Assembly (NCBI GenBank): GCA_012026655.1
Contig: JAAILG010001868.1
Location: 1-61,000 of the forward strand
Source of the DNA: Hydrolagus affinis
Lineage: Eukaryota
DNA length: 61,000 nucleotides
Reading direction: 5' to 3'
Made by a program: the position numbers and the translations under genes. Shown here in pieces: positions 17,373 through 61,000 of the stretch (the stretch's first letter is position 1; each line of letters starts with the position of its first letter). Under the pieces are notes generated by a model. The model made no database searches and was not told the origin of the DNA. It was given only the letters and a program-made list of their open reading frames with translations.

Positions 17373-17578
17373 ATGGAAGATTTCTTGCTAATCTAATTTC
17401 AGTGATTTCATCCAATTTCTATCAAGTAATGCTGTTTTTTCTCCCTTCACCACAAGAATTGGCAAATCCACACATTGATTCTTGTATTTAACCGGAACAC
17501 ACACTCTACCCACAACTGGGATGATCTCTCCTCCATAGCTACGCAGCTCGACCCTTGCTGTTTGTAGCTTATTTTTGC

Positions 17579-18610: not shown

Positions 18611-18714
18611 TCAAAACGAAAAGTCTTCACACACCTCTCCGCACTTTGTACAGTCCTTGTCCTACAAACAGAAATAGCTAGGGAATCCACTATCCCAATC
18701 CCTCGTAGCCAATT

Positions 18715-31456: not shown

Positions 31457-32293
31457 TAAAGTTGTAGATTGAAACCTGAGAGTAGGGATACCAGCCCACC
31501 CTCCTACAACAGCTGGTTACTAATGGACCGGCTTTACAGCATGTACTTCCAATAGCTTAGGTCTGGATAGAGTGCTCACATGCAGGTCCTGAGAAAGGCA
31601 GTGATTATTGATGATTGAGTCTGAATGCTCCCTATAATTAAAACATTCCCACCCTGCTCCCCATCCTATCAACCTTTTGACAAATGATCACAGCACTGGC
31701 TAGAGCTGCAGCAACATTCATTTCAACACCATCTCATAGAATCAGAAAATGGAAATGACACAAAGTGCAGACTCCTATGCTTTAAGAAGCAGGTATCTAC
31801 TGTGTTTTTTTTCTTTAGGAGTTATATTTATCTGAGGGACTGGCCACCTAATCACAGTGGGGAAAAAAATCTGCATTACAGAGTAGTCTTGGATCACAGT
31901 AAAGGTTTGGACACCACATTGCCATTTGTTAGCATTTTTTGTTAAAAATACTGATATTTCAGAAGTGTGTAACCTAATCACTGTCACATACACCAACTAA
32001 TAACTGTCTAATCTACTTAAAAGGAGTACATCAGAGAAATGTAATTTACACCATTACATTTAATACCAAAAAGTAAAAGATACAAATTTAGATTCCTCTC
32101 TAAAGAAAGCGAAGCAAACAAATAAAGGAGCATTTCAAATATGTGACAAGTCAAGTGAAAATACTTCAGTAAATGCAAGTATTGCAGTTAACCAACTTAA
32201 AATTTGCATTTCTCAAACAAATTCACTTCTTTACATATTTCACATCAACTTTTGCTCACTCGTGTCAAAGTCCACTTTGCTATATTAACGTAC

Positions 32294-35200
32294 TCAATCC
32301 GTGCTTTCACCAGAAGGCGATCGTGTGCGTGACCTTACATGATCCCCAGACGCCAAAGAGGAATGGCCTCTCTGTTCCTTAGGAGGAACAGGTGATCTAC
32401 TCTCAGAGCGTGACCGGCTACGGCTTCGACTCCTGGACCGACTGTACGACTTGCGGCCCCTGGAGCGAGATCTGGAAGAACTTCGACTGCGAGATCGAGA
32501 CCTGCTGCGAGATCTGAAATTATAAAGCGAGTGAATGATTTGAACCGACAGAAATGTTGAGAGATATTCTATCAGCATTAGTTGTATAAAGCATTACAAG
32601 TTTTTGTTTAAATTCAATTCTATCCATCTTACATCCTATCACCTAAATGGGGGTGGGAAGAAGGAAAGAAAACGGATATACAGTCAACACTGTCATTACA
32701 ACCACGGGCAGAGAAGCAAACGCAGCAGGACACAGAGGAAAATGAAATTGTCAAATGTTGATTTACCTGTATTGTTTACGTTCTTCAATGAGTCTGATCT
32801 TCCTTCCATTGAGCTCTGTGCCAGATAGCTTGTCAAGAGCATTCTTCACATCACTGTATGAGGCAAACTCAACAATCCTATCAAAGAAACACAGTGGAGT
32901 TTTTAAAGTTAGGACCATTTCAACAGCCATGTTTTCTTTCCCTGACATACTAGTTTTATAGATCCAGTCAATGCTGTATCTGGTTTCAGCTACTGGACGT
33001 CCCAACTGAACAAATGTTAAGATCTTACAACAGCAGCAGAAAGGAAGTCGGAGTATATGTGAACAATACGATCGATTTACCAGTCAATTCTCTTCAAAAC
33101 CAATCAATTGAGCAGCAGATCCCCTTCCATTCAAATGGGAAACAAATCAATAAACCTCCATCTATGATTTCAGAAATTTATTTGGTTATTTCTGATTAGC
33201 AGCTTGGAACATCCTCCCAACATGAAATGCGCTATACAAATGTGGTATTGTTTTTGAAATGCCTGCGATTCTTACTGTGCTCAAAGCCCATGCCTGAATT
33301 TGATTAAAATGTAAAATTTAAAGTATAAATCAAATGCAAGTATATTTCTAAATATAAGCACGATAGAATTAAAATCAGTTAATGGCCAAATGAAAATTTA
33401 GTAGAAAAGTGAGATAATCAATTTTGAAATGAAGAAATTCACTGCATGAAAACAGAGAATATATCCATTCATGTTTATGCACAAGTAGAAATCAGTTAAT
33501 TGGCCAGTCAAGAGTTAGTTTGTTACAAATGCATTCAATTTGAATACCTTAAAATGTTGGTTGCAAAGTTTAAAGATTCCTCCCACCAGGATCAAGCAAA
33601 CGGTATCCTCACAGTGGCCATTAATCCACCATGAATGCTTACTTTTGATGAATGGCTTTCCTATGCGTCAGGACAGAATTTGGTTTCCGTGTTACATTGA
33701 GACACTGTCTTTCCTTATCCTGGAATATTGCAATCCAAATATCTAATCAGGTAATTATTTCTACAAGAATAATATCCTATTTCCATTAATAGATTTGGGT
33801 TACTGAGACTTGTATTTTTACTGTTGAATCGGGAAGCCCCACAATATCTGAGCAACGTGGACTGCTGAGGTATGAACTAGGCACTTCCTCCAAGAGGAAG
33901 GTGGGATAATTGAAGGAATATATTTGTCAGGTTGCTATTAGGAACCATCCAACAGCTGGTATCTGAGCTGCATTATCAGCACATTTGGTACCTCACACCC
34001 ACATATATTGTAAACCACAGATATTTTAAAATCCATTTCTTATAATAACTTACCCTTCATTTAGTTTGTGCCTATGCGCATCTGCAAAGGTAACTTCTCC
34101 AGCTTGTCTCATAAAATCTTTCAGGTCCTACATAAGACCAGATTAGTTAGGTAAAACAAAGCATGTTAACATACGTATACTATCATTTTCCAATGTAGAT
34201 CACTGGAAAAGCAAGCAAAAAAATACACAAATCTGATATCAAAATTTATATTACCTTCCTGACCATTCCCTAGGCTATTCAACCAGCCAAATGCAACAAG
34301 GATTCGCAGACGTACCACCACGATTGAAGACCAGATGGTTGTCTTCACCACCCGCTTGTCTGACACTACCCATTCGATGCGAGCCTTCCTGGACATCAAT
34401 CACCCTCCCTTAAAGGAAGAGTCTGGCATTGCCATAGGAACCAAGCACTGCTACTCTTGCGCCGTGACCAAGGACTTCTCGACTCACTCCAATCGAGCTT
34501 CCAACCAACCCAACTAGCGAATTTCGCTCATTCTTTCAATCAAGGACCTCATTTTAGAGCTGGCTCTCAGAACGCTCGGCTTTAGGGCACCTTGTTACCA
34601 GCATTTTCAGGCATCCAGCAAGGAAAACGGCACTAAACCCAGTGCCCATCATTGTTGATCAGACCACCACACACAGATCTAGATCACCAATTGACTGAAA
34701 CATAGGAGCGGACTGGCAATTCAACTAGGCCCACCAAGAAACCGAGCCAGAGCGATTAGGAAAACCAACGACACTCCTCGTCACAAGGCCAACGACAATG
34801 AGAGGCTGGTAAATAAAGGTTTTAACACTTGGTTAAATTTCAGAAATATTTGAACATTAAAAACTGAATAAAAATACATCTTAGTTGCAAGGTTAATAGA
34901 CAATCAATTTTTTTTAAAAAGCAACAGTACTTAAATTAATCTGGAAGACAATTAAAGTTTGCCCCCATTTTATTTAAACATTGCTTCCCCCACCCCCTTC
35001 ATTAAGTCTCATTATACATTCAGTAATTTTGAAACACAATCGCAACAGCATATACAAAAGAAAGGAAATCTAGGTAAAACATAGGTTAAGAGGGAAATGA
35101 AACCAGTCACAGGCACTGTGTCCCCTTAATATTTTCCATAATGGAGATCATAAGATCTTTATGTAAATTCTCTGTTCTGTCCCCTTTTAAGCTTTGTGCA

Positions 35201-38200
35201 CAAAATGTGTGCCATTCTGTTATTTTAGCTTTTGTCCAAAATTAGTAATATTGCATAATTTCTAATGAGTTACACACCCCATGGGATGAATCGGTGAAAC
35301 ATTTAATGTCATAAACTTGCTCAGGACTGGGGAGGTAACCTAGGCTTTACATAATTCCTGTTGTTTTGAACAGCTACATGTGCTTGCAATTATTCAAATT
35401 ATTAACATTATCTTAAATTCACAAAATCGAGATCTGGAATACTTTATACATGCATAAACATAGCTATTTAGCTAACACCTGGCAATGCCCCTCTAAAATA
35501 TCAAATTAAATTGTTGGTTATATTTAAGTTTTAGCAATCCACATAAAACTGGTCATTTAAATATAGAACAATCATATTTCCACACAACATACCTGCCAGC
35601 TAACTCTGGAAGATAAATTCTCAACAATCACTCGGTTTTCTGTACGAACTGGAGGTCCATTTCTGAAATGGAGAATTGTATGTTATGAGATGTCTCGACG
35701 AAGTGATAAGCTATATTATTATTCTGCCCACAAAATATACAGTCAATTCACTTTACAGAATATTCTGTGACATGTTTGGAGACACCTAGAAGACATGAAA
35801 AGCGCTATATCAAATACAAGGTTTATTATTGTTATAGCTGTAGAGAAGATTAATGATCGGATAAGGAAACAGGTCATTAGATAACACACTGGAGAAACCC
35901 TTTTTGCCTCTCTCAGGCCCTAGTCCTACCAAAGAACAAATTCTGTATAGACTGAGATCATCCCACACCGTGTATACCAGTGGTCAAACCTGCGACATTT
36001 TGTAGTGAGTTATTCAGACTAGATATCACCCAACATTTAACACTGTGACCATTATGGGTACAGAACGACCACAGTATGTTCAAATAACATTTTGTGTGAT
36101 GACACATTTTGAAATAGACAAAATATCCAGTGCATTATTTCCACTTTCGCAACTACCATTCAAAGTCTAGCTTCTATCACGTTACTATTTTGTTTTGATA
36201 TTGAAGGGAAGAAAGCACCAACAGTCTCACCTTCCTCCACCACGAGGACGGAGTTGACCAAATCGATATCGTCCTGGTCCTCGCCCACCTCCCCCCCTAC
36301 GTGCTCTAGCATGTTCCACTGTAACTCTGTAGGGAAAAAAAGTATCCATCGGTGTAGAATGCAGTCAGCTACGTTTTACTAATAACTAATAGCGTTTTAT
36401 AAACCTTCAGTTTTATTTGTGATGTGCTTACCTTTCATTACATAACTCTTTTCCATCCAGTTCATAAACTGCATCCTCTGCATCTCTGTAATCTTCAAAC
36501 TCCTAAATACAAACAACAAAACATTTTCAAATATAAGGAATTTAATTTTCAGTTATAGTTAAAACACTAAAAAAAAGCAAAGGATTTATGATGTTAGAAA
36601 CTCAATAGTTCCTGATTTAAAACTGACAGAACTCTATGAAACCAGCGATTATAGGCCATTTGCTTTGACATGAATAAAAATACTTCATGAAGACATTGTG
36701 AGCAATTCAAAAACAATTATTAAAGGCACATACACACGGAACAGATCGTATTTTATTTACTTTTTGTGGGGACAGCTGGCAGAAACTCAACATCATGCTT
36801 AAGAGTATCCAAACCAGACAGTTCCACATATGCATGCTACCTACACACGGAAATGTCCAAGTATGGAATGGAATGAGCACTACACTTACTTAATTCCAGA
36901 GAGCGTTGGGTAGTTTGGCAAAAGCCAAGGTTTGGAGTTCCCACAGCATGTGCTGGAATTTAACCAACTAAAACCACACCATTGGACACATTGTCTTGAC
37001 AACTTCCCCCTCTTTGTCCAGCTAGGCCCACTCCACCCATTAATGCTTTGGCCTGCAGGGTTAACATGGGCTAAGTAGGAAACATCCCCAATTCCGGATT
37101 GTCATCAGTTTTTGAATTGCTCACAATGTCTTCATGAACTATTTTTACTCCTGGAGTATTGCGGATCCACCTGATTCAACAACTGGATTACCGTGACCGG
37201 CAAGATTAATGATTCAATTTCAATACCTCATTGCCAAGCACATACCTTGGGAGTCAGCTCCCTTTAAGGATATTTGCTAGTTAATGTGGATAAAATATCT
37301 GCATTTTCATTTACTATTTCTCAATAATAAAGTGTATCAAAGCAGCTTAAAGCATACCAGTAGGGCCAGCATAGATGACCATCCACTTTCTTTGGGAAAT
37401 AAGGCACTTAAAAATAGCAAACTGAATCAATTCAAGGGACACACTGTCCAAACTTTCCGATCTTGAAGATATTTAAAACCCAAATGTATTTCTCTTCTTG
37501 CAAAATACTTTTACTCAACGGACAAACTAAAAGGACTTGTTGACAAAACAGATCCAAAGGAAATATGGCACATTCCTAGGTGCCAAACAGGAGGAGCTGA
37601 GGTAGGAGAACTTCAAATGTACTGTATCCATGGCCATCTCCTCAATGAGGTTATAGACTTAAACCAGCAAAAGTCCCCAAGAGACAATAAACTTTCAACT
37701 CCTATTCTCAAAATTGTCAAAGCAAAAACAATTCTAGCATAATGGTCCCCTTTGAACATTTATTTTTGGAATATTGAATAAGGAATAATAATACTAATCC
37801 TCGCATTTGATATAGCGACTTATCATATCTTCTAGATGTCTCAAAGCATATATTGTAAAGTGAATTGACTGCATATTTTGGGGGCGAAATGTGGCAGCCA
37901 ATTGTGCACAGCAGTGTGCCACCAACAATTGTGCATTGAGTGATCACATTATCATTTTATTTTTTTCCAAAGAATTATTATTCCCAGAAAATGATCTGTC
38001 ACCCAACTAACAACTGGGTTCTCACTTACTGCTAGGAAAACAGAGACTTGTGGAGTAAGGAAACATGCCCAACCTTTCACCCTTCCTGAAAATTAAACCC
38101 AGTTCTCTACCTTATGAGACAATTGCTCTAACCACTAAGTTACAGGACTCCACATTGGGGTCAGTAGCCATAACATAGCTACGATTCCCTGCTTGGAAAC

Positions 38201-40412
38201 TACAATTTTAGTGCTACCTCCAATATTCTCCAGAATAAATGTGACATTTTGGTTGAATTGAATGGTTGCCAGAAGTGCACTTCAAAACTAGGCCTCCAAC
38301 AAGGCAAATAAACAAAAGTGAACACACACATCAGAAAACAATTAACAGCTTACTGTGCATGTAGTTTGCAAAATACAATAAATGCATATGGAACTCATTC
38401 ACAAGTATCCTGAGCCCTTTTAGTGCCTAGAATTTACACCATTTACTACAGTAAATTCTTTAGTTATTCAAAAGTGCCACTAAAAGCCATCATTACTTTA
38501 TTATTATACTCCATTCTTGATTTCTCAAAAACACTCCTTGCCAGCCTCCCTATTTCCACCATCCATATCCCCCACTCCAGCCTTCATCAAGGCTCTTTGT
38601 CCCCAATAATCTCAATCTTAGAATTCACAACTAAATAGAAATCACAGAAGGATATGAAGAACAGGACAAGAATCTTAAAATTAAATAATCTGAGGTATTC
38701 AGAATCCAATAAAGTTTGATGAGTAGGAAAGTTAATGCAGAAAGAACACTGGCTCACATTTCCGGGCCAGTTGGAAGTGTTTAAGACTCTGACGAGGGAA
38801 GCCAGAGACAAGAAGCACTGCAAAAATACATTCTTGTGACAAAAGGCATAGGTTGTGTGTGACGATAGTGGATGTGAGTACACTAATATTCATTCAGGCA
38901 CATCAGTTTACAGACAGCAGCAACCAGAAAAAGCTGAATAGGTGCATACAAGTGCAGGTATATACAAAATACTTGACAACAGCAAATGTGCAAATTTGTG
39001 GGATGCTCATAGGCTGTAGCTGACTATGAGCAAGAAGTAATACCTCAGTCTGTAACACCTTGAAACCTTAACCATCTTCTCCAGTTTCCCCTTAGTTATT
39101 GGATCTCTCCCTCCCTCTCCATTTTTGTTTAAACCTAAACTGTACTACTTATACTGAACTTCACATCTGCCTTCCAAAACATTTTACAATCTATTAAGAC
39201 TACATCAGCTTATATGATATTTTTAATATTCTCCTGAATTTCCCATCTCTCTATTCAATTCTGGCATCTGCCCCTTTCCCGTGATTGGTCCCTCAGCAAA
39301 ATGTTACTTATATGATAATTTCTTTTCTAGATTCTGTTTGAATAACAAAATTACATTTGTATAGCACCTTTCATATTGGGACGATAATATTAATAATCCT
39401 TACATTTATATAGCACTTTCCACATCTTATCACGTCTCAAAGCGCTTTGTCCCAAGGCGCTGGACATTCAGGGTTTTGGACCTGAGCTGGGGATCAGGAT
39501 CAGGAAGTTTGCAGGGCGGGGGGGTTGCAGGGAATAAGTGCACTCACAGATTGAGTGCACAGTCAAAGAGGAGGGTCTTGAGATGGGGTTTTGAAGGAGG
39601 AAAGTGAGGAGGCAAAGCAGTTAAGACTGCAGGATGGAGTTCCAGAGGCTGGGGGCAGAGTGGCTGAAGGGGGACTTGAAACAGGCCTGAGATCACTGAG
39701 CAGAAGGAATGGGCAGGCTGGTAGAGGGTTAGGAGGTCACAGCATTAAAGGGTAAGACCATGGAGGGTTCTGAAGGTGAGGGCCAAGATCTTGATCCTCT
39801 GTGATGAGAAGCCAGTGGATTTGAGTGAGGATGGGGTTATTAGGATCACAGAGCCTGATGCAGGAGAGTACACAGGCTGCAAATTCTGGATGATCTGCAA
39901 CCTATGGAATGAGGAGTTGGGTAGGCCCACAAGCAGGGAGTTTGCAAGACTGGATGCATGTATGTATATATGTATGTATGAGAGTCTTGGCGGCCTGCGG
40001 TGTGACAGTAGCAGAGCTGGACAATGTTGACAAAGTGGGGGAAGGTCATGGCGCGGATACTGGGATATTTGAGGTTCAAAGAAGACGCAAGGTTCCGGAG
40101 TGTTACTCAGTGAATTGGAGTGTGCATATTCTTGGACGGTGATATTGTCAGCGCCTGAGATGTAAACTGCAGTAAACCTGAAGAGTTTGGGTGGTGGGGT
40201 TCCGTAAGTTATTGATCAAAGGGGAACTGGTTTCTGGGCACACTCGAAACTTCAATCACAATTTATTGCTGTGAGCGAAAACAGCTTACCACAAATCCAA
40301 ATCCATTCTTCAAATCAATTTCCCTAATTCGTCCATATCCCCTGAAGAATTTCTCCACATTTTTCTCGGTGGCATAAGGGCTCAGTCTCCCGATGAACAC
40401 ACGGGCACTCAT
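32294..40412 (-). CDS. SRSF5: Serine/arginine-rich splicing factor 5-like, copy A (254 aa)
   Basis: Coding exons 40412-40290, 36502-36432, 36326-36231, 35662-35593, 34127-34054, 32877-32767, 32513-32294 total 765 nt, open frame, all GT-AG. RRM1 ([18 protein letters not shown]), RRM2 with SWQDLKD signature, RS domain. Probable non-coding exon 1 near 41070-41170. Confidence 0.93.
34255..34805 (-). other. Poison (PTC/NMD) alternative exon of SRSF5 copy A
   Basis: Acceptor ..ctttatttaccAG at 34806, donor GAAG|GTAAT at 34254. In-frame stop at 34725-34727 ([26 protein letters not shown]). Alignable with B and C while the flanking long intron is not. Position inside SWQ/DLKD matches the known conserved unproductive-splicing region of SRSF4/5/6. 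Confidence 0.85.
36675..37147. repeat. 40-bp inverted repeat (36675-36714 / 37108-37147, 1 mismatch)
   Basis: taaaaatacttcatgaagacattgtgagcaattcaaaaac versus gtttttgaattgctcacaatgtcttcatgaactattttta. Confidence 0.92.
37785..38150 (-). mobile_element. tRNA-derived SINE, long variant
   Basis: Same family with an extra internal segment (cttactgctagg..agag). Confidence 0.88.
39343..40170 (-). mobile_element. L2 LINE 3' fragment with nested SINE tail, intron of SRSF5 copy A
   Basis: [31 protein letters not shown] motifs; similar to the 26700-27790 copy. Confidence 0.85.
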
Positions 40413-40779
40413 TTTCTTCCGACAATAATGTTGCAACTGGTGAAAGGAAACAAAAAACAATTCCTCTCTTATCAAGCACTTAACCTCAGGGGACAAAATC
40501 CCATGAAAGAAAGAATCTTTTTTACTAAATAAAAAGCAAATTCCCTAAGAATAATTTTTAAACAAAAAGCAATTTCCGATGATTTAACTCTCGACCACAT
40601 GGCCCCTGGGAGATCACAGGAGAGCCTCCTCCAATTCAGGCAGCTGTAGTAATACCTGGACCCCCTCTGGTCCGACCCCTTCGCTATCGGGGAATTCATT
40701 ATCCCCCCCCTCCCAACGGGAGCAGAGCGCACCCTCCTCCCAACTCCCATCAGAACGCAGTAGTAGAAGTTTCTTGCAC

Positions 40780-41230
40780 ACGAAAAGGTCTAACGCAGTT
40801 TCCTCCCCCTGGGCGTTTTTGGTTTAAAAATAGAAACCGAACGAACAAAGCCGCCATTCTCTGTCTCTCCCACTCACTCACTCACCCCCGGAGGGAGAAC
40901 TGCCGCGACGATTCACTCGGCCCACACTCAGGCCGAGCTCGGGAGGGTCTTTGAGGCCAAACTCTAACCCCCCACCTCCCCCCGCCCCCCCACCTCGCCT
41001 CGGTCTATCTGCCTGGCCTGACGGTTTCTTTTCCCGTTAGCATTTGGGATTCTGCCGCCGCGCCTTCTACCTGCTGGATCGGATCCTGCGATGAAAAACG
41101 GCGCCGCCACTGAAAGAGAGAGCGAGAGCTCAACAACACCTCACCTCAAAATGGAGCCCGACCCCACCGACCGTCACTCGGCAACCGGCCAGGATGCGTC
41201 ACTTCCGGCATCTTGAGCACCCCCCCCTCC
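40780..41230 (-). promoter_or_regulatory. CpG-rich promoter / non-coding exon 1 of SRSF5 copy A with overlapping ETS-CRE motif
   Basis: CpG-rich segment. Minus strand reads CCGGAAGTGACGCA at about 41195-41208; YY1-like AAAATGG near 41147; CAG|GTAG donor near 41070. Confidence 0.7.
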
Positions 41231-44200
41231 CATTCAATGAGATGAGAATCACCATGGAAACGGTGTTCCCACAGGCTGGCCTGTGTCCCCCCCCTCCGTC
41301 ATATACACACAGGTCAAAGCATGTCACACCATCATGATTATACACAGACCAGATGGTGCAATTCTTACACGCAGGATACATCATGCTAGACTACACAGAA
41401 CATGCTACAGACAGGATAATCTACAACAACTTGAGTTGATGTAGCACCAGTGTGTTAGACACGTTACACACAGGATCATGCACAGAGGATTAAAGTATTT
41501 ACACGGGATCAGGCCAGTGTTGTACACTTTACAGAAGATAACAACAAAATGACATTTATAGACCGCCTTTTACATCAGATGGACATCCCAAGGCACTGAT
41601 AACCTGTTACATATGGGCTAAAATGCAGCATTGCTACACAATATTACGCGGGCTGATGTATTTTTCAACACAGGAAGCACGAGTACTGTATACTGAACGG
41701 GAGAATGTGCAGGTACAAAATATGCTCATTCCAAAGCATAATTTATGTTAAAGAGGATAATGCACAGAATGTTACATCGGTAAGTAATTTGTTAGCCTTT
41801 GTTCCATCTATATATCGGCTATTGTGCAATGTACAGCCAACACTATTATAACTGTAGGAGTAATATTGATCAGCATTCCAAAGCCTAGTTGCAAAGCCAC
41901 CCAGAATTGTTCCAAAATGTCATACAAAGATCCCTGCTGAAATGTGCGTATGTGTGCCACTGATATGACCTGCCCTTTCTGATCTGTTAAGACTCCACTC
42001 CAAATGACGCACTCAACTTGTACACTCCATCCTACTTCATCCCTGCATTTGATTAGGCACGCTTCACAACAAATTGCCTCAAAGCACTCCCTAGATTTAC
42101 TATTTTGCAGGCAAATACCTAGCTATGTTCCAAGGAAATTTGGAAATGGACCGTGTTCGTTCACATGCTTGTTTGCCTTTGCATTTATAAATCAGTGAAA
42201 CCATGCTGTTCCATATTTTGCAATCATTCACCGCCTTGGGATGTCCTCTCAACATGAAAGGCACTTTACAAATGTAATTTTTTTTGTTGTCCATTTTGGG
42301 AGGCACAAAATACACAAGTCTCACCCTTGGTTTGATTCAAGTCCTCTTCAATCTTAAATTTATCACTAAATTCAAACTAATTGGAAACATCTCTATAGTG
42401 TGCTGCTAACTCATTAAACTGTCCTATTTAACAGCATTCACTCAATTTCTAGCAGCTACTTCTTTTTTAAAATCAGGACCTCGAGAGGTTCATCTTTAAA
42501 TTAATATAATATAAATGGAAAGGAGTAATTTATTTTGGATAGATTAATGTGAACTCAGGACCTTTGCTTTTACCATGTCCTATCTCAACAGTTTCTCCTT
42601 ATGTGTGCTTTGTTTCAAAATTTCACAGCAAAGGCCAGAGCCATCAACTTATTGCTTTAGTCTCCCTTGCTCCACCTATTCTTTTTATACTGTATAAATA
42701 CTTGCTGGTTAGTTGATGGTTGGTGGGTGGGTGGAGAGAGAGAGAAAAAAAGAACTTACCTCATACCATCTTTTCTCTACCACATTACTGGAAACTAGAC
42801 TATTAGCACTGCAAGAGCAACCATGGTGGGGGAGGAGGTTCTTTATCTGATTTATAAAAATACATAGTGCAAAGAAATCTAAGTGTTTTCTGGTAGGAAG
42901 CAGAAGAGGTCTCAGGTATATGTGATTGCACACAGGATGAGTTATGCAAGTTTTATTATAATAACAATCGTTGCATTTCATTTAATGCTTTTCACATCTT
43001 TTCGACGTCTCAAAGAGCTTCACAAAATTTAGTGCAAAGTGAATTGATTGTATATTTGCGGGTGAAATGTTGCAGTATGTTTTACTGCATATACACATGA
43101 TTAACAAATCCTATCAACACTTAAAACAATGTGCGTTTATAAAGAATAAATCCATCCAATCCAGTTGTTAAAGAATAAAAGCCTTACCAAAGAAGCCACT
43201 GATCAGGCAAGCTAGCTTCAAGCCAAACAGCCTGCAGCAATGGGCCACAATTATTTAGGATTTTCCCATAATAAACTGCCAGAATGGCATGAAGGGCTTT
43301 ATGTCAGAATATTATTTTATGTGCATGCTTTTTGTGTGGAAAGTTGCTTTACTGCCACCTCTGCCTTTGAAAATCTGGCAGAAAACAAGGACGTTTCCAA
43401 ATAATGCCTCTTTCAGCATGATCAACAATTGTATCCCAGTAGTTGGAATTAGTTTGCCAACAAAGTAACAAAAAAGGTACAAGTAGGCGTTTGCGGGTCT
43501 CAAAAGCTGAAATCCTATATGGCGACTCGTGTTGCAGGATGACACTCCAGTACTGTATTGGGTGGGGCACTGAATTGGAGATACAAGAGTGAATGTGGAG
43601 AAACCTACATTTACTCCAGAAAGATCATCCAGTCTCCATGCTAACTCATCTCAGTTCTTGAGCAGAAACAAGAGACAAGCATCAAGCAACAATCACTAGA
43701 AATTTCAAGTTCCAATACTTATGAAAGTATTTATATGGATTTATATGTATCTATATGGATCTATTAAAGTAGGTGAATTTCCAACTGACTGCCATAATCA
43801 GCATTTGATTATTCACCACGGTAAAAGTGTTGTTTCAAGTGCACCTTCTGCCCAGTTTGATGTACCAAACTACCACATATTTCCTGCCACGAGCCCCAGA
43901 TAGTGCACCATCTGTATTGAGAGCCAATAGTCAAGCAGGTGATGTGTAGTGTAAGAAACTCTACTAAAGTTCATTCTCTGAAGCATAGCCTCAGAAAATT
44001 GCAGATACTCGATTTGCATTGATGGCTCCACCACTGTTAAGCACCCGAGACACCACCTGGTGTGGAGGGCACTATAAAAGTGCAGTTCTCAGAAGTCAAC
44101 AGGATCACTTCTATTGTAAAACCTCAATAATTCGGCCTGGTCAGGACCACATACCTCCCGCATTTCAGTTTGCTGGTATTTAGAATATTGGGCCAACACA

Positions 44201-47600: not shown

Positions 47601-50600
47601 AAAAAAATTGATGACAGTAAGACACTCACTATCTTGAAACTATTTTCTGGTTTCTCAAAAAAAAAATTTGATCAGGTTTCTCGGTGCCACTCACCATTCC
47701 CCTTCTGAGAGTAGGCTGACCAACAACTTCTTGCCATTAATATTGAGAGCAGGCATGTGGGTGTCTAAGATGCTGGTGACCTTCCCTCTTTAAGAAGTGA
47801 CTGCCCACCCCCACCCAAAATCATCTAAGAAGCTTGCCTCGCCTGTGGGGGAGAATTCACACTCGTTCCAATTTCCACCTATTTCTCTCTGTACTTCCCC
47901 AAGCAACAGACAGTGATTCTCAATAGTATACAGTATTAGATCACATTCTTAAAAGCTCAATGTCTAGGTTCTGAGGGCAAAGCAATTCAGGGCACAAGAT
48001 AACCCATCACTTTTTTGAAGTTTTCCAAAATAGTGACTTTAAATGTTTGCAATACCTATTTTCTTCCTTTTGTAAGTAAACAGGACTGAAAACATTTAAA
48101 AGGAAACAAATGTTTAATGGATTCTACAAAAGACAATCCTAAAATGCTAATTTGAACTTTCACCACTATCAATAAAGCTAGTCTACAGCAATCACAGCTC
48201 CACCTTAAGAATTTCTGTACCATTTTACATTTTTTTTACAGTAGAGGAGCACAAATTTTTCCTGTTAATTGCTTTAAAACTTTTTTTAGTAGCCTAAAGG
48301 TTCAGTAAATAGCCTTTCCTCTGATGCTTTCCATCTTTTGTTTAAGTTTTTTTAATTATAAAAAAAGCATTTTAATCGAGTCAACTATAAAGAATGCAAG
48401 TTTCCCTTGTGAGTTCCTCCATATCCCAATCTAGAATATTACCTTACTCACAACTATCTATTCCTTGGTTCTCTCACCAAAAAGAATGTTAAATGGTAAA
48501 TTCTGAGCAGTTACTTACTTACCTTCATTAAAGAAACCCCCTGCCACCAAAAAACTAATCTCAAAATATATTCAATTGTCACTGATTGCATTGCTGGCAC
48601 AAGTTGACAGCCATATTTGCCTACATAAGTCACTGCATACAGAATACTACATACACCGCAAAGTACTTTGACATGCTGAAGCACTATTTGAAATATATAT
48701 TTGAAGTATTTGATTTGGTAAGAGGGAAAAGGCTAGCACATGAGCTCACTAGCTTAAGCAATTCAGGAAGACATCACACTTGTGTGGCCTTCACTGTAAA
48801 TTGAGGCTTAAGTAACCTTGAAAGCTTTATTCACATTTCATTGCAACAGAATTCAGTTTTAGTTGAAATTAATGAATGATCATCTTATTTCACAAAAAAA
48901 AACAATGTAACGTTACATACCTGCCAGCTAACTTTGGAAGATAAGTTCTCAACAATCACTCGGTTTTCTGTACGAATGGGAGGCCCATTTCTGAAAACAA
49001 AAGTGCAAGCTACATATAACAAATCACATTTATATAGTTCCTTTTACATAGGGCAACATCTCAAAGATATGTGGCAATGTCAATTAAGAGACAAAGTAGG
49101 CACCGATACAATAACAACAAAATGACATTGGTATAGCATATTTAATGTCCCAAGGCGCTGGATAGACAGTATTCCGAATCCAAGATGGGGATAGGGATTG
49201 ATGAGGGAAGCAGGCAAGGGGGGAAAAAAGACATGGATCGAAAGCAAAGTCAAAGAGGGCCTTGAGGTGGGTCTTGGAGGCAATGGATGGCCAAGGTGGA
49301 GGAACTGCAGGATGGAATTAGAAGGTGGGAGCAGAGAAGCTGAAGGCTCGCCCCTGCCAATGGTGGGATGGGTGAGGCAGGGGACACGAAGTAGGCTAGA
49401 GTCCAAAGAGCTGAGGGAGCAGGAAGGATAGTAGGGGGTTAGGAGATCGCAGGTAGGGGGAGCACGGCCATGGAGGGCTTTGAAGGCAAGGATCAGGATC
49501 TTAAAGCCCTCCATGGCCTTGCCCCGCCTTACCTCTGCAACCTCCTAACCCCCTACCAACCTGCCCGCTCCCTCCACCCAGTCAACTCCATCCTGCTCCA
49601 TCTCCCCGACCCAGACTCCCCTCGATAGTCAAGCTATCAGCCATTCTGCCACCAACCTCTGGAATTCCAGCCCACAATCCTTCCGCCTCACCCCTTTCCT
49701 CGCCCCTTTTAAGTCCCACCTGAAGACCCTCCTCTTCGAAGAGATGCCATCCAGCGTGAAGGGCGCTATATAAATCAAAGTTGTTGTTGTTTGAAAGGCG
49801 CAACACGAATGTCATTTTGTTGTTGTTCATACTGTTCACAAATCTTTTATTATAAAATGCCCAGAGAACTAAACTCACCTTCCTCCACTTCGAGTCCAAC
49901 TTTGATTAAATCGACCTTGAAATCGTCCTCGTCTTCCACTGCCACGAGTTCTAGCGTGTTCAACTGTAACTCTGAAGAAACAAATTGTCAATGCCTGCAA
50001 GACTAAAGGCACAATCAAATACAATGGAGAGCTAATTAGCCACACTAATGGTGAAAAGGAAACCATGGGGATAACTGGTTGTCACAAGATACAAAATAGC
50101 TCTAATGCTAACCCAAAACAGGAATTACACAGGCACTAGTGCCAAACTGTCAACTCAATTTTTCTCTTTAAACTTTCTGCATCTTTCTACTTCACATTTC
50201 TTCTCTCCATTTGACCGTCTTATCTCTCTCAACCAACTACTGTACCAACTAACTTTTGCAGGCTCGTCACTAAGATTTATATCAGAGTAGCATGAAATAC
50301 CTACCTACTTACAGATACAACATATTCCTAGTAATCTTGCAAACACAAATGCAACTAGTTATGACGGTTATATGACATGACCCCATTACTCCCACCATCG
50401 TCCGGCTCCATTGGCTGCCCATCTTCCAGAGGATCGAATTCAAGATCGTCGTCCTCACTTTCAAAGCCATTCATGACCCTTCCTATCTCTGCGACCTGCT
50501 GCCTCAACCTGTCTGCCTTTTCTGTTCAGCTCCATTTCTCCCACCTGACCCACCCTACCATCGGTAGCCGAGCTTTCAGCCTCTCTTCCCTCACACTCTG

Positions 50601-51170
50601 GAACTCCATCCCAACATGAAAGACACCTTATAAATGTCATTTTGTTATTGTATTGCAACCCCAGGTTTAATTCTGCATTCAGAATTCAATGCGGATAAGT
50701 GGACATGTAGATAACAGTTTACCAATCAGCAGTGTTCTAATTTTAGATAATGAAATCTAACCTTTCATTGCACAACTCTTTTCCATCCAATTCATAAACT
50801 GCATCATCAGCATCTCTGTAATCTTCAAACTCCTGAAAGAAAAAATAAGATATGCTTTCATGCCACCATAGAGTAAAGCTGATAAATTTCCTCTAACCAT
50901 AATTTATACTAGAAAATGTCTCTCTTCTAAGTAATCTGGAAAGGAAACTTGTACATCTTCAGACAGCGGCTATAATATTAAATGCTGCAAAATGTTACTA
51001 AATTAAATAAGTCTGGCTTGGCTATTATACATTAAAAAAAAACTCACCACAAATCCAAAGCCATTTTTCAAATCAATCTCTTTAATTCGTCCATATCCTT
51101 TAAAGAATTTCTCCACTTTTTGTTCAGTGGCATAAGGGCTCAATCGCCCAATGAATACACGGGAGCTCAT
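44693..51170 (-). CDS. SRSF5: Serine/arginine-rich splicing factor 5-like, copy B (273 aa)
   Basis: Coding exons 51170-51048, 50832-50762, 49971-49879, 48990-48921, 46734-46661, 45353-45243, 44972-44693 total 822 nt, open frame, GT-AG. Same RRM-RRM(SWQDLKD)-RS architecture. Non-coding exon 1 ends at a CAG|GTAAG donor at 52863. Confidence 0.93.
46040..46360 (+). mobile_element. CR1-type LINE 3' fragment
   Basis: aaaaggaattggataggtacttg..gagccag..cacgatgagccaaacggcttcc; related decayed reverse copy near 22380-22660. Confidence 0.7.
46864..47405 (-). other. Poison (PTC/NMD) alternative exon of SRSF5 copy B
   Basis: Same acceptor and donor as copy A; reads PLVMSLAL*. Confidence 0.85.
49110..49826. 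mobile_element. Two L2 3' fragments joined in opposite orientation (- 49110-49500, + 49501-49790)
   Basis: ggccatggagggctttgaa versus ttaaagccctccatggcc across the junction; L2 tails at both outer ends. Confidence 0.8.
50385..50652 (+). mobile_element. L2 3' fragment in an intron of SRSF5 copy B
   Basis: LHWLP..RIEFKI..LTFKAIH-type sequence followed by an L2 tail. Confidence 0.8.
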
Positions 51171-52439
51171 TCCAAATAAAGTATACGGTTGCTAAAGTGA
51201 ATAGGAAAGAAAAACAACCATCAAAGTAAATCTAACTTATTACCACCAGAAAAGTAACAAAAAGAACTCAAACAACTCGAGGTTAAATTACTGGAACTAA
51301 ACCAGTGAATAATCTGATTACAACATTTATTGAACACCTTTCACTTCAGGAGGACAATATGCCTTTAAACAAATCAAGACAATTTAAACTGCTCCTGTCT
51401 GTCCCTGCAAGCCAACTGCAAAATTGAATCCACTATCTATGGGAATAGAAATCTCAAAGGTATTTTCCATATTCCCCATCTCCCCAATTAACATCAGACA
51501 AAATGTAGCATTTAGTATTGTCATACTCCCAGAATGCTTTTTAATTGCTGCAGAAATGTTTACATTGGAAATCATTGGCAATTAATATTATGTCCTTTTC
51601 TAAAAAGGTGAGGTTCTCTCAAAAACCTAATCTTGAATTATATTAATGATAACATCAAAAACATTGCCTCTAAACCTCGATGGTGAAGAGGGTCTATTGC
51701 GGGGGGGGGGGGGGGAAGGGAACGATCCGTGAGGCAACTGGTTGAGAGAAAAACTGATAACCTCATAGATGTGATCAAAACGCACTTAAAAATATTCATT
51801 CCATTTAATCTGATGTGGTAGAGTGCCACAGGGCTTTCCCAGAACTTCCAGCAATTATTGCCATGTAACGAGTAACAGTTACTCTTTTTTCTTAATAGTT
51901 TGTAAGAGCAGTGCCGGTTAACCAGACCGGGTTAGTCTCCACCACACAGCTACGTGGCGCACAAAGGCTCTTAAGAAATAATAACCTTTTTTTAAAAAAA
52001 ATATATAAAACAACTAACTTTCGTATGGTAATGTTGCAAAATGAAACCCTTTCAATTGAATCCTAGGCCTGGGAGTGCATATTGGGCACAAACTAGCTGC
52101 TTGGGAACATGGTAATCGATACAGGCGATTCATCCCCAAAAGAGGCGTTTAACACCCGCTCTCGACCAACATTAACCCTCTCCTCAAGCTTCTTTTTTGG
52201 AAAAAAAAACTCCAGCAAATAACGCCCCCCATAAAACGATCAACGAAAATCTCCAGGAAATAACGCCCGAAATATCTACCGAAAAAAAATCTACAGCATT
52301 GACCCCCCAGCCAGCACCCACCAGCCCCCCCCCCCCCACCCCCAAAAAAGCATCAAAATTTCTAGCAAATTTCACCCCTGCCCCCAATAAAATTATCCCG
52401 AGTATTGACACCCCGTGAAATCGTGCACAAGAATCTCTC

Positions 52440-53255
52440 ATCAATCAAGAGCGACAAACCAGGCGTCCGGGGACAAGATGGCGGAGAGAGGAAGGGGGTT
52501 GGGGGGAAGAAAGAGACGCGGGACAAAAGCCACAATCCCGAGGGGAACCTTAACATTTATTTAACTCCACCGTCGAGCAACTACCGGGGGGGGGGGCACC
52601 CGCGTTTACACGAAATTAACGTCCACGAAAGAGGAGGAAGGGGAACAGAGGAGAAAAAAAAGCTTGAAAACCCGACACGGCAACAAAAAGCGGCCGCCCG
52701 CATGGAGGGGGGAAACATTTTTTTCAGAAAAATGAAAAATCAGAATTCAAATGGGGAGAATAAATCAGGCAAAAACATATATAAATTGTCGAGCGGGCCA
52801 CACTTGCCCACAGTCTGAAACACTGACCGCCTACAGCCAATACCTCTCTTCGCGCCGCTTACCTGGTCCCAAACACCGAGCCACTGCAGTGACGCAGTTA
52901 TAATAAAAACCGAGCCACAAAATGGAGGCCGCGTCTCGTCCCGCCTTGACATCAACCAATCCGAGGCGGGCGAACCGCTTGCCTTCCACCAATCAGCATC
53001 CACGACTGTACACTTCTCAGCCAATCCAGGGTTGGCAATCCATGCGCCAGCCTACCCAGAGCGGCCAATCACAGCCCCGCCTTCCGCTCACTGTAGGCAA
53101 TCACAGCTCCACCTCCACCACGGAAGCCAATCGCAATCCCGCCTCCACCACGGAAGCCAATCGCAACCCCGCCTCAAACACGGAAGTCAATCGTAGTCCC
53201 GCCTCCAACACGGAAGCCAATCACAGTCCTTGCTTCCGCCAACACGGGAAGCACA
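52440..53255 (-). promoter_or_regulatory. CpG-rich promoter / exon 1 of SRSF5 copy B with CCAAT-ETS-GC box array
   Basis: CCAAT at 52956, 52989, 53021, 53065, 53127, 53157, 53217, variants at 53097 and 53187. CGGAAG at 53121, 53151, 53181, 53211. YY1-like AAGATGGCGG at about 52475. Donor at 52862. Confidence 0.75.
53097..53230. repeat. 30-bp tandem repeat, about 4.5 units (ccaccacggaagccaatcgcaatcccgcct)
   Basis: Exact 30-nt periodicity visible directly in the sequence. Confidence 0.92.
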
Positions 53256-53349
53256 AACCTGGAAGCTCAGCGAGAGGAATGGACTTCTTCTGTTGTTTTC
53301 CCCTTAACACCTTAGGTGGAATTTAAGATGATAAGATACGTAAGTGTGT

Positions 53350-56135: not shown

Positions 56136-59100
56136 TTAATCTGCACTTTCAACAGAAGGCGATCGTGAACGTGAACGGGATTTTGATCGTGACCGTGAAC
56201 GAGATCGAGATCTTGCCCGTTCCACTGACGCAGATTTGGACGGAGTAGGGGAGCGGCCTTTTGGTTCCTTGGTGGGAACAGGTGATCTACTACGAGAACG
56301 GGATTTACTGCGGCTCCTACTCTTAGACCTACTGTAGGATCTGCGGCTCCTGGAGCGAGATCGGCTGCGAGATCTGGAAGAGCTACGGCTTCGGGAACGA
56401 GATCGACTCCGAGACCTAAAAAAAATCAAGAGAAAGAGCAACTGAAGCAATCGATTTGACATGTATTACAATTTTACTATCAGAATATTCTAAGTACAAA
56501 TCAGGCAAAAAATTGACATTCATGATGATCGCATATTGGGAGATCTAATACTCTCCACTGAAAATAATCCTCCCACACCGTGATGTGCCAAGCAGAGGCC
56601 AATACATTTAACTATTTAGTGCCCCAATTTACCTATACTGTTTTCGTTCCTCAACCAGCCTAATCTTTCTTCCATTGAGCTCTGTGCCAGAAAGCTTGTC
56701 TAGAGCATTCTTCAAATCACTATAAGAGGCAAATTCAACAATCCTAGGAGCAAAGAAAACACATTTTCAGTGAGAATATTTCCAGCAATTAAAAGTTATT
56801 TGAAAATATCTAATAGGACAATGGTTATGCAAATAATTTGAATAGACATTTTAAACTCTACACCAGGTTTAGATAACTAACCAAATATTCAAACTTTGCA
56901 AGTACGCATCTTTGTGTAATAATGCACGTCTGTTTATAATAAATGACAGTAGGTATAGTTTCCAATATTCACATTGTGTAATGCAAATGGATCTTGATTA
57001 TCTGAAGCAAATAATCCTTGCATTTGATATAGCGCTTTTCACGTCTTCTAGATGTCTTAAAGCGCTTTACAAAATTTACTGTAAAGTTAATTGAATGTAT
57101 ACTTGTGGAGAAATGAGGCAGCCGATTGTACTCAGGAGTGCACCACAAACAGTTGTAGCTCGAGTGACCACATATTTTTGAAGAATTATTATCCCAAAAA
57201 AGCGATCTGCCAATCGACTGACAACCCGGTTCCTACTTACTGTTAGGTAAACAGAGGTATGTGGAGTAAGGAAGCCCAACATTTCACCCTGCTGGGAATT
57301 CAGGTCTGTCGCTTAAGAATCCAACGCTCTAACCACTGAGCCACAGGACTTCACAAATACTACTATATAGATTAGACTGAATTTATATAAACAAGTCACT
57401 TCCGTTAACTTACCCTTCGTTCATTTTGTGTCTGTGTGCATCAGCAAAAGTAACTTCTCCAGCCTGTCTCATGAAATCTTTGAGATCCTATGCAAGATCA
57501 GATCACTTAGGTAAAACAAAGCACATTCACACATTAATTCTATAATTTTCCAATAACATGACTGGAAAAGGAAATACACAATTCTAATGTCAAAATTTGT
57601 ATTACCTTCCTGTACCATTCCCTAGGCTATTCACTCAGCCAAATGCAACAAGCACTCGTTGAGGTACCACTACGATCGAAGACCTGATGGTGCTCTTCAC
57701 CACCCACTTGACCGACACTACCCATTCGATGGGAGCCTTTCCGGACGATCACCTCCCTATAGGCAGATTCTGGCTTTGCCATGGGAACGGGGATTGCTAT
57801 TCTTGCTCCGTTAACAAGGAGTCCTCACCTCACTCCAATCGAGCTTCCAACCAACCCTACTAGCGAATCGCTGGCCTCACACTTTAGTGGGATCTCAGAA
57901 CTCTCGACTTTAGGACACCTTGTTATCAGCATTTTCAAGGACGCAGCAAGGAAAATGGCACTAAACCCAGTGCCCACCAATGTTGGTCAGACCAGCCCAA
58001 AACAGATCTAGATCACCAACTGATCCTGAAACGTAGGAGCGATTAGGAAAACCAACGACACTCCTCGTCATAAGGCCAACGACACAAAGAGAGGCTGGTA
58101 AATAAAGGTTTTAACACTTGGTTAAATTTCAGAAAACAATTGAACATTTAAAAAAAAACAGCAAATCATATAGTAAAGGCTTTCAAGGTCAGGAAACTAA
58201 ATATATACATATATGTATAAATAAAACTGTTCTGCTCATTTAGCTACTCTAAAAGTTAAATAGAAATTCCATCTTCCATTTTAGAAAGCAATAATTACAC
58301 TAAGTATTACCCCAAAAAATTAACACCTATTCTCCTGTGTACTGAGACCATCTATGATCAGAGGGTGGAAGACATGTCAAAGCCAACCGCCACCGAGACC
58401 AATCAATTCTATTTAGCGCGATTCACAGGCACGATTTCTGAACAATCAGGTCACAATGGACCAGATGCCTCCTCCCCATCACTCTTTATTACCTGTGGGT
58501 GCCACTCATCCAAGGATGCAAGCGACCCTTTCTTTACTTGGGGAGCACGCCCAAGAGGCCACTCCTCACACTGTTTGGCAATTTGCCATGAAGGAGTATC
58601 TTATACATCTGTATCTTATACATCCTTCACCTATGTCTATAACAATTTCAGCAGGAGTGGAGCAAACAAAATTTAAATGACTAGAGCACAATTTACTTCA
58701 ATAGAGTTGCGCGTTCTGTAAATATCACTCAAAATTTTAGGACTAAGCTACTTATCTACCTATCCACTTAGCTACCTATCATTAAGAGTCCATTTACAAT
58801 AATGGGGTAGGAAGTGACATTCTTAGAAAACAGTAGTGGCCTCTGTATTTGTGATTTAGAAATTGAAAGGCCTTTCCCCTTCCCCAGACATTGTAAAAAT
58901 GATACAGGTTCATACTTTGAGGTCAATCGCTTTGTTAAAAGTTTGCTATTTTATCAATAAACTGTCACATACAGACGGGGTCTTGTCCAGTTATTTTCTT
59001 GGTTTAGATAAAACTATTGAACTAATTTCATAGATTTGCAAAGCAAACACATGGAAGTCACTTCTGCCCTTTATTGCGGCTGGGTCTCAACTAACCTTGA

Positions 59101-60635
59101 AAGCTCTATTTACAGTTACATTTGATAAGAGAACACAATTAAATCAATAAAGCTATGCTCAAGAGTCACGGTTACAAGTAACCTACCTGCCAACTAACTC
59201 TGGAAGATAAATTCTCAACAATCAATCTGTTTTCTGTGCGACTTGGCGGACCACTTCTAGAACAAAGCAAGATTTGATTAGATCCCACACAAGTGGGAGG
59301 CAGAAGCAAAATTTGAAAATGAGCAATGGGAATGTTAAAGCAAAAGAACAACAAATCCATTGCCCAAGCAACAGGACAATGAAATAGTCCAAATATCTAG
59401 TATTCTATGACATTTCCACGAGACCTAAACTAATTACATTTTTCCATATAAACATCAAGCAGAATCTAGTGGAACCAAAGTTACTGCTCTTGGGAACACA
59501 TGAAACGGCTTGGTTCTATTAATATGGCTATATTTCAGAATACCCCCACTCAACCTCACCTTCCTGCACCTCTTGGGCGACGTTGATTGTAACGGCCTTG
59601 AAATCGGCCACGGCCCCCCCGAGAGCGTGCTCTAGCATGCTCTACCGTAACTCTGCAACAACAAAAACAGGAGCTCATTTAAAATCTAAAATCGCCATTG
59701 AGAGTACTGGATACATATTTACACAGAACTACAGAACCAAAACGGTCCATGTAACCTAACTAGACCAGGCAGTACAGTATTTACACTCCACATGTGTTTC
59801 CACTTATGTATGCATTCTCCCTTATATACATATTTATCGTGCACACACCCCACCCCACTTAATAATCCTGGATCATGGTTGATTGAAAAGGAAACATTGG
59901 GAATTTCCAATTTATTTTCCCCCAAAAAAAAATCACAGGATTTTGTGTTTACCTTTCACTACATAACTCTTTTCCATCCAGTTCATAAACAGCATCATCT
60001 GCATCTCTGTAATCTTCAAATTCCTAAAAAAAAAGTTAATTTTACAACAAAGCACAAAAGTTTTAAGAATTGTTTAAGAAAAGTATTGCAAACATTTTCC
60101 TCACAATTCCAGTCACCTCTGTCAATTGGATTTAGCAAAGCAGCTTGCTAGCTGATCTACGGAGCAATATTTATTACTTGTATCAAGTATGAAGCTCTAA
60201 ATACTAAGACTGAAAAAAAATTCAGAAATGGCAGGTGCACTCCACAATCTGTATAATAATAATCCTTGCATTTGATATGGCACTTTTCATATGTTCTAGA
60301 CATCACAAAGTGCTTCAAAGAATATACTTTGAAGTGAACTCACTGTATAATTGTGGGCGAAACGTGGCAACAGCATTGTCCCATAAACAGTCGTGGATTA
60401 GGTGGCCAATTTATTTTTTTTCTTGAGGGATTATTATCAGTGTACAGCCAGCATCCGAGCAGACTAGCTCTAAAATGGGGGAATTTTTTCACCGTATTTG
60501 CATAAATCTTACCACAAATCCAAAACCATTCTTAAGATCAATTTCCTTTATCCGGCCATATCCTCTGAAAAATTTTTCCACATTTTTCTCGGTAGCATAC
60601 GGACTCAGTCGCCCGATGAACACTCGAGAGCTCAT
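56136..60635 (-). CDS. SRSF5: Serine/arginine-rich splicing factor 5-like, copy C (273 aa)
   Basis: Coding exons 60635-60513, 60023-59953, 59652-59560, 59256-59187, 57487-57414, 56743-56633, 56415-56136 total 822 nt, open frame, GT-AG. Exon 1 and promoter lie beyond the window end. Confidence 0.93.
57010..57350 (-). mobile_element. tRNA-derived SINE, long variant
   Basis: Same family; head ctctaaccactgagccacaggact. Confidence 0.88.
57606..58094 (-). other. Poison (PTC/NMD) alternative exon of SRSF5 copy C
   Basis: Same acceptor and donor; reads PLFVSLAL*; has internal deletions relative to A and B. Confidence 0.85.
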
Positions 60636-61000
60636 CCTCTCGACAGAAAACACAATTAGTTCCCTTTCGACACGTTTCTAGTTGTGATCCTGGAGATAAA
60701 AGGAAGACAATTTAGAAACTAGTTCAGCACCATTAGTTGAATATGAGTTAGGGGAGTGAGAGAAAAGGGGTTGGAGGGAAGACAGAGAAAAAAAACGGGT
60801 GGAGGGAAGGGGAAGGGGGTGCCAGCTGGAGAAATGGGAGAAGAGGTGGCGTGAGAGCGAGAAAAAAGGGGAGAGGATTAGAGAAAGAATTGGGAGAGAA
60901 ATGGAGAAAGATGAAGTGTGAAATACGGGAAGAAATTGGGTAGAGGTGGAGGGAGAGAGAAATGGGCAAGGGAGGAGGGGAGAGATAGAGAAGGGGGGGA

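Follow-up and report, generated by a model that had tools for sequence, protein, structure and literature searches.

We observed three SRSF5-type genes in one orientation on the minus strand of the window (the whole 61,000-nt stretch of chimaera DNA that was analysed): copy A (60635-56136), copy B (51170-44693) and copy C (40412-32294). The first-pass annotation had described three co-oriented copies with matching exon sizes and open frames; our gene models confirmed this and added the strand. The three neighbouring copies span ~29 kb, and all lie within 29850-61000, which is free of any N. No fourth SRSF5-type copy was found in the 61,000-nt window by tblastn with the three proteins as queries.

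Exons 2-8 of copy A occupy 56136..60689, with the ATG at 60635, the stop ending at 56136 and coding exons at 60635-60513, 60023-59953, 59652-59560, 59256-59187, 57487-57414, 56743-56633 and 56415-56136. An AATAAA is present at 55756, and the end of the window cuts off the promoter and non-coding exon 1 of this copy. Exons 2-8 of copy B (44693..51191; ATG 51170) have coding exons at 51170-51048, 50832-50762, 49971-49879, 48990-48921, 46734-46661, 45353-45243 and 44972-44693, with an AATAAA at 44403. Those of copy C (32294..40436; ATG 40412) have coding exons at 40412-40290, 36502-36432, 36326-36231, 35662-35593, 34127-34054, 32877-32767 and 32513-32294, with an ATTAAA at 32064. The coding exon lengths are 123/71/93/70/74/111/280 nt in A and B, and 123/71/96/70/74/111/220 nt in C, with 60 nt less in the last exon. 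All 18 donors carry GT and all 18 acceptors AG, and the translations (273, 273 and 254 aa for A, B and C, the last with a shorter RS domain) contain no internal stops.

As read from the translations, each of the three proteins has an N-terminal RRM, a second (pseudo-)RRM with SWQDLKD, and a C-terminal RS domain, which is the domain plan of an SR protein of the SRSF4/5/6 subfamily. The exon layout is of the SRSF5 type and not that of SRSF4/6, with seven coding exons and a predicted non-coding exon 1; the human SRSF5 exons used in this comparison are 126/71/99/70/74/111 nt long. The stop-containing segment in intron 5, a hallmark of SRSF5, was seen at the same position in all three copies.

The neighbouring gene on the plus strand (20607..27955) is SLC10A1 (NTCP, the sodium/bile acid cotransporter), as indicated by a Pfam SBF domain (E 5.5e-25), named homologues and five exon matches to the Callorhinchus protein P0002. 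These matches bear out the linkage of SRSF5 with SLC10A1 that had been proposed earlier. Judged by this gene, the DNA seems to come from a holocephalan that is not Callorhinchus milii. SLC10A1 serves as a syntenic anchor, tail-to-tail with copy C and ~4.3 kb from its stop. A 100-N gap (29750-29849) separates the two genes, and both of its flanks match one LINE-like repeat with order and orientation kept. The human gene order is listed as SUSD6, SRSF5, SLC10A1, SMOC1 (PMC10751923). SUSD6, if the locus has it, would be outside the window. A SMOC1 exon was sought at the start of the window and was not recognised there.

Constraint and age of the copies

The pairwise dN/dS values were 0.059, 0.096 and 0.107 at dS 1.09, 1.00 and 0.88, respectively, with bootstrap upper bounds of 0.153 or less; for the RRMs only, dN/dS was 0.014-0.055. 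The ratio is thus well below 1 in all pairs, as expected from the earlier suggestion of an old triplication kept under purifying selection. Fourfold-degenerate sites differ between copies by 43.6-51.4%. Since dN/dS is 0.06-0.11 at dS ~1, the sequences indicate that A, B and C are old, constrained paralogues rather than an assembly artefact. The holocephalan-elasmobranch split is placed at ~421 Ma and chondrichthyan rates are slow (PMC3692497); as the portion of that paper available to us gave no synonymous rate, dS was left unconverted to years.

The RRMs are 92-95% identical between copies. Their 13 variable positions (7 in RRM1, 6 in RRM2) carry mostly conservative changes, and none falls in the RNP2, RNP1 or SWQDLKD motifs. 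Identity in the linker is 61-64%, a divergence that may change binding specificity, and A, B and C contain 29, 26 and 17 RS dipeptides.

The introns were compared in 18 orthologous pairs outside the intron-5 module (introns 2, 3, 4, 6, 7 and proximal intron 5), using the best of 40 mononucleotide shuffles as the threshold. In 13 of the 18 pairs the score was at or below this threshold. Of the other five, three exceeded it by no more than 3 points, over 19-35 nt; the A-C match in intron 2 paired two SINEs, and the A-B match in proximal intron 5 was a patch of 36 nt. The introns outside the module are therefore unalignable apart from these marginal, SINE and 36-nt matches, and repeat insertions are specific to each copy; on both points the first-pass annotation held. 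The 3' UTR could be aligned over its first 105-130 nt in all three pairs, at 76-83%. We also considered the intron-2 SINE of A and C as a marker predating the duplication. Its identity (~76% over 119 nt) resembles that of any two SINEs in the window, which makes separate insertion events likelier. With Rfam at the gathering threshold, the only hits within the window were two tRNA-like SINE heads, and the module matched no known RNA family.

The candidate poison exon and the promoters

Intron 5 of each copy holds a candidate poison exon, with boundaries drawn from conservation among the copies. In copy A it spans 489 nt (57606..58094) and reaches a stop after 8 codons, 647 nt upstream of the last junction. 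In copy B it spans 542 nt (46864..47405), with the stop again after 8 codons and 700 nt upstream of that junction, and in copy C 551 nt (34255..34805), with 26 codons before a stop that lies 655 nt upstream. All three are on the minus strand and have stops in all three frames. The candidate exons differ between copies by 14.7-16.5%, while fourfold sites differ by 43.6-51.4%; in each of the three pairs the Fisher p is at most 5e-9. A 41-nt invariant run covers the acceptor, and equally long runs occurred in 13 of 5000 permutations; a further ten invariant blocks measure 12-24 nt. Conservation is highest at the splice signals and ends at the edge of the module. The comparison supports the retention of a candidate poison exon under strong constraint in each copy. 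Thus the proposal that every copy keeps an autoregulatory module agrees with the sequence, which holds segments of 489-551 nt with early in-frame stops and 15-17% divergence.

A second conserved acceptor-like site was seen inside the candidate exon in all three copies. A long-range acceptor-donor pairing suggested by RNAalifold was rejected: 17, 107 and 53 of 500 donor shuffles matched the duplex energies in A, B and C, these energies did not stand out from those of ordinary acceptor-donor pairs, and at 37 and 10 C the single-sequence ensembles contained 0.0-0.3 expected pairs.

Upstream of copy B there is a CpG-island-like promoter (52200..53300, minus strand), in which CCAAT and GC boxes are numerous and a 30-nt tandem repeat occupies 53098-53229; the predicted non-coding exon 1 ends at the donor 52863. 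The CpG-island-like promoter of copy C (40700..41400, minus strand) has one ETS-like site, and the predicted exon 1 ends at the donor 41071. The two promoters gave no alignment, as 37 of 300 shuffles scored as high. CpG-island-like promoters usually indicate broad expression.

Possible regulation of the array

Core SR splicing factors are under dosage control and, to our knowledge, each is single-copy in mammals. On the evidence of the sequence, we consider it probable that a local triplication took place at the SLC10A1 site and that shared poison-exon buffering holds the three working genes as one pool. An old triplication of SRSF5 at its usual place beside SLC10A1 would have given three working genes. 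In the human gene, SRSF5 binds around the poison exon and promotes its inclusion, and the included product goes to NMD or is held in nuclear speckles, with SRSF3 acting on the exon too. Because A, B and C should share one RNA target and their modules are ~85% alike, any copy's protein would promote inclusion in all three pre-mRNAs where the copies are co-expressed. SRSF5 activity would then be buffered in total as a single pool, and the extra dosage after duplication absorbed, while divergent promoters and changes in the linker and RS domain would give the copies expression domains of their own, and with them a reason for retention. Cross-regulation of the three copies as one unit is plausible; it cannot occur if promoter activities do not overlap.

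The intron-5 poison exon of vertebrate SRSF5 (SRp40) is conserved across vertebrates (Lareau & Brenner 2015, PMC4379411). In the part of a human study available to us, SRSF5 binding was strongest around its own poison exon, and inclusion fell from 10% to 4% on depletion (PMC10726014). The same part reports that SRSF5 mRNA falls, and does not rise, when the protein is depleted (PMC10726014), so the loop is no simple thermostat. Inclusion of the SRSF5 exon is driven by SRSF3 as well, so the conservation of the exon may instead reflect shared outside regulators. The modules would then be functional but read mainly by SRSF3, other SR proteins, or kinase or temperature signals, with the copies partitioned by tissue or stage and no meaningful cross-regulation. 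The unrelated promoters of B and C and the diverged linkers and RS domains are in keeping with this. We regard it as somewhat unlikely, given the similarity of the RRMs, the two visible CpG-island-like promoters, and the human protein's binding to its own exon with loss of inclusion on depletion, as far as the portion of that study goes.

Gene conversion among the tandem copies, in place of selection on each module, is improbable. Tandem arrangement favours conversion, and the branches are uneven along the gene: exons 2-5 hold 22/15/2 codons unique to A, B and C (p 0.0004 for a departure from equal branches), and exon 8 holds 4/10/15. However, the module differences are evenly split (40/35/33; p 0.70), conservation peaks at the splice signals and stops at the module edge, the flanking exons hold many synonymous differences, and the same segment is conserved between vertebrates, beyond the reach of conversion. 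Copy B is nearest C in exons 2-7 and nearest A in exon 8, as an unequal-crossover chimera with its 5' part from C and its 3' part from A would be; but both the module and the 3' UTR give star-like patterns, the B promoter does not align with that of C and the RS-repeat alignment is ambiguous, so that this origin is not supported. We give very little credence to an assembly artefact (uncollapsed haplotypes) or to some copies being recent pseudogenes. The gap between copy C and SLC10A1 would fit the former, but its two flanks match one LINE-like repeat in consistent order and orientation, the three genes lie in gap-free sequence with 44-51% fourfold differences and unalignable introns, and frames and splice sites are intact at low dN/dS.

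We found no description of a tight three-copy vertebrate SRSF5 array in the literature, and the chimaera array looks undescribed. The mechanism proposed for it is already known: SRSF5 poison-exon autoregulation and cross-regulation between SR paralogues are both published, and the array adds no new mechanism. According to a published idea, poison-exon feedback absorbs dosage after duplication and is later replaced, which uncouples the paralogues (Lareau & Brenner 2015, PMC4379411). Three long-lived tandem genes, in which the element was not replaced after duplication, offer a natural test of this idea. The three versions of the element, at ~85% identity in unalignable introns, also show which blocks matter; the mammalian element is too invariant for such footprinting.

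Comparison with known systems

The copies share with vertebrate SRSF5 the two RRMs and RS domain, eight exons, the stop-containing segment in intron 5 and the SLC10A1 neighbour. That gene is single, whereas here three lie adjacent within ~29 kb and the promoters of B and C are mutually unrelated. Duplicates are known as chicken SRSF5a, Xenopus 'krt5.1' and zebrafish and fugu srsf5a/b, which bears out the earlier mention of a second SRSF5-type gene in some non-mammals. In chicken, frog and zebrafish both genes are scored positive for intron-5 alternative splicing or retention, and fugu has no such ESTs (Table S1). In chicken, a single 1-Mb interval holds SRSF5, SRSF5A and SLC10A1, but its two SRSF5-type genes are ~430 kb apart and not a head-to-tail triplet; in zebrafish the two copies lie on different chromosomes. 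The part of a zebrafish study available to us reports srsf5b, along with several other SR genes, as up in srsf5a mutants, and srsf5a is absent from the genes it reports as up in srsf5b mutants (PMC5766196). For the reading of the array as one pool, the rise of srsf5b counts in favour and the other two observations count against.

The array could alter the explanation of the non-mammalian SRSF5a/b genes. Tentatively, and we think this unlikely, it may be what is left of an SRSF5 cluster already present in ancestral jawed vertebrates. Chicken SRSF5/SRSF5A, the frog's second gene and perhaps teleost srsf5a/b would then be scattered survivors, and mammals would have kept one copy.

The C. elegans genes rsp-1 and rsp-2 are an adjacent SRSF5-type pair separated by ~1 kb. 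They show alternative splicing and/or intron retention, but they are invertebrate and only two. For PTBP1/2, hnRNPL/LL, hnRNPD/DL, and SRSF3 acting on SRSF2/5/7, one paralogue's protein drives another's unproductive splicing. The genes of those sets are dispersed, whereas A, B and C carry a homologous exon in three linked copies, where we infer cross-regulation. SRSF4 and SRSF6, which arose from SRSF5 by duplication, belong to this subfamily and have the same arrangement of domains. None of their intron positions is found in SRSF5, and they have replaced the intron-5 exon by a new intron-2 exon, whereas A, B and C have kept the ancestral layout and module.

Gene structure and identity of the array

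We observed three SRSF5-type genes in the order A (60635-56136), B (51170-44693) and C (40412-32294), all on the minus strand. The array is real: the first-pass annotation had described three co-oriented SRSF5-like genes, and this was borne out, with open frames throughout and GT-AG splice sites for every intron. The coding exons of copies A and B measure 123/71/93/70/74/111/280 nt (273 aa each) and those of copy C 123/71/96/70/74/111/220 nt (254 aa), with a polyadenylation signal 230-380 nt past each stop. The assembly is gap-free across the array (zero N, 29850-61000), and a fourth SRSF5-type copy was not found within the window.

The gene downstream is SLC10A1 (20607-27955, plus strand; Pfam SBF, five exon matches). 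It lies tail-to-tail with copy C across a gap of 100 N (29750-29849), both flanks of which match one repeat, in register. Among the best 120 of 652 matches, its first exon aligned along its entire length with a Callorhinchus milii protein at 80% identity, and with shark and ray proteins at 60-68%; the best E-value belonged to a 700-aa teleost model (61% identity, 70% of the query). The DNA therefore comes most probably from a holocephalan that is not C. milii. Several of the fish SLC10A1 models (matches P0001, P0003, P0004 and P0008) run to 570-700 aa, the usual length being about 350; these are possibly fused or tandem-duplicated gene models.

Since exon layout, intron-5 module and SLC10A1 synteny all say SRSF5, we assigned the copies to SRSF5 instead of SRSF4/6. 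The criteria are those of Lareau & Brenner (PMC4379411), and human gene order around SRSF5 (PMC10751923) was the synteny reference.

Elsewhere in the window, a tRNA-derived SINE family is scattered (Rfam tRNA matches and self-matches; e.g. 8263-8334, 28622-28684), and LINE-like 3' fragments occur (e.g. 26700-27780). A degraded Gypsy-like LTR retroelement lies at 14700-18620 (minus strand); its integrase matches Pfam rve and Integrase_H2C2, and further frames are split into separate ORFs, which we take to be gag/protease- and RT/RNase H-like. LTRs were looked for in this element and not located.

Divergence and selection

Overall, the copies share 84-88% amino-acid identity; the figure for the RRMs is 92-95%, and the linker is the most loosely conserved region (61-64%). 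An old triplication kept under selection had been proposed, and the numbers agree: Nei-Gojobori dS is 1.09 (AB), 1.00 (AC) and 0.88 (BC), with dN/dS of 0.059, 0.096 and 0.107, respectively (bootstrap upper bounds 0.093-0.153). The introns, described earlier as unalignable, are indeed so outside the module: 13 of 18 pairs aligned no better than shuffles and three barely better, the others yielding one SINE match and one 36-nt patch. As most SINE copies throughout the window are still ~70-90% alike while their host introns no longer align, the duplications are probably older than this SINE wave. By the depth of divergence in these sequence comparisons (dS, unaligned introns, SINEs), haplotype duplication is excluded as the source of the array.

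Private changes in the module are star-like (40/35/33). In exons 2-5, private codons number 22/15/2 of 91 for A/B/C, giving a very short C branch, and in exon 8 they number 4/10/15 of 51, giving a long one. This uneven synonymous change could stem from tighter constraint on the copy nearest SLC10A1, from old conversion, or from misalignment of the RS repeats.

Candidate poison exons and proposed shared regulation

In distal intron 5, ~820-890 nt can be aligned among the copies at 75-82% identity. This module holds a candidate cassette exon, delimited by conservation, of 489 nt in A (57606-58094), 542 nt in B (46864-47405) and 551 nt in C (34255-34805). The acceptor lies within a run of 41 nt that is identical in A, B and C; the conserved donor, AAG|GTAAT, is 118-129 nt ahead of exon 6. 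Inclusion is predicted to bring a stop after 8 (A), 8 (B) or 26 (C) codons, which would place it 647-700 nt ahead of the last junction; were intron 5 retained, the predicted stop would come after 4-11 codons. The candidate exon diverges by 15-17% between copies, as against 44-51% at fourfold sites. The autoregulatory module proposed for each copy appears as a constrained candidate poison exon in A, B and C. Since a second acceptor-like site within the exon is also conserved in all three, its boundaries may be alternative. A 44-nt piece is present in the B and C modules and absent from A. A predicted acceptor-donor helix failed its controls, and the module gave no Rfam match.

Conservation among the copies, at 76-83%, is also seen over the initial 105-130 nt of the 3' UTR (56000-56130 in A, 44560-44690 in B, 32160-32290 in C; minus strand). 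This stretch, absent from the first-pass annotation, may be a second shared regulatory element.

The 5' ends of copies B and C resemble CpG islands, each with a plausible, predicted non-coding first exon; the only other such island found in the window is at 3701, and the 5' end of A lies beyond the window edge. The B and C promoters gave no significant alignment (37 of 300 shuffles were as good), and B has nine CCAAT boxes against one in C. In the B promoter, at 53098-53229, a 30-nt unit composed of CCAAT-box and GC-box-like elements is also repeated in tandem (3.9 copies), and C lacks this repeat. The B and C promoters resemble each other only over 17 nt with a YY1-like core (15 identities; 52925 and 41154, minus strand), immediately 5' of exon 1, and this likeness is not significant by itself.

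The RRMs of the three proteins vary at 13 positions, all of them outside the RNA-binding motifs, and the modules of the copies are ~85% alike; mutual regulation is therefore likely to be the default wherever the copies are co-expressed. In human cells, the strongest SRSF5 binding is around its own poison exon, and removing the protein lowered inclusion from 10% to 4%, with total SRSF5 mRNA also falling (PMC10726014). The model that we favour, and consider reasonably probable, is that the divergent B and C promoters would provide separate transcriptional inputs, and that the inputs of the copies would feed one common post-transcriptional brake. Its main rival, which we judge rather unlikely, is that outside factors control the modules and expression is partitioned among the copies. 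SRSF3 acts on the SRSF5 poison exon too (PMC4379411, PMC7764535).

Relation to known SRSF5 duplications

We found no description of a three-gene SRSF5 array in the open-licence literature, which was the scope of the search; this literature yielded no paper on tandem SRSF5 duplication in sharks or on duplication of SRSF5a in chicken, and the best 6 of 7 matches on SR-protein and SRSF5 duplication in vertebrates, lamprey and coelacanth dealt with other matters, judged by title and opening of the abstract. The one open-licence paper on SRSF5 and Callorhinchus concerned CLK kinases (PMC12795684). SRSF5 was not mentioned in the best 40 of 4,801 matches on cartilaginous fish, a result that carries little weight. 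In related species, such copies may already have been labelled by automated annotation. An old three-copy array with a constrained candidate poison-exon module in each copy is real and well supported, and would be of greater interest if ancestral to jawed vertebrates and if cross-regulation were demonstrated.

According to Lareau & Brenner, the intron-5 event is universal among animals, and fresh duplicates would regulate both themselves and one another (PMC4379411). In their Table S1, chicken, frog, fugu and zebrafish have two SRSF5-type genes apiece, and evidence of intron-5 splicing is given for both members of the pair in chicken, frog and zebrafish. The table also has two neighbouring genes of this type from C. 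elegans. The chicken pair lies on chr5, ~430 kb apart, and one 1-Mb window holds chicken SRSF5, SRSF5A and SLC10A1 (PMC6678660). Cross-regulation between RBP paralogues is called very common (PMC11062102). Given these published duplicates with the intron-5 event, and paralogue cross-regulation, SRSF5 duplicates that retain the module, and the regulatory logic proposed here, are already known.
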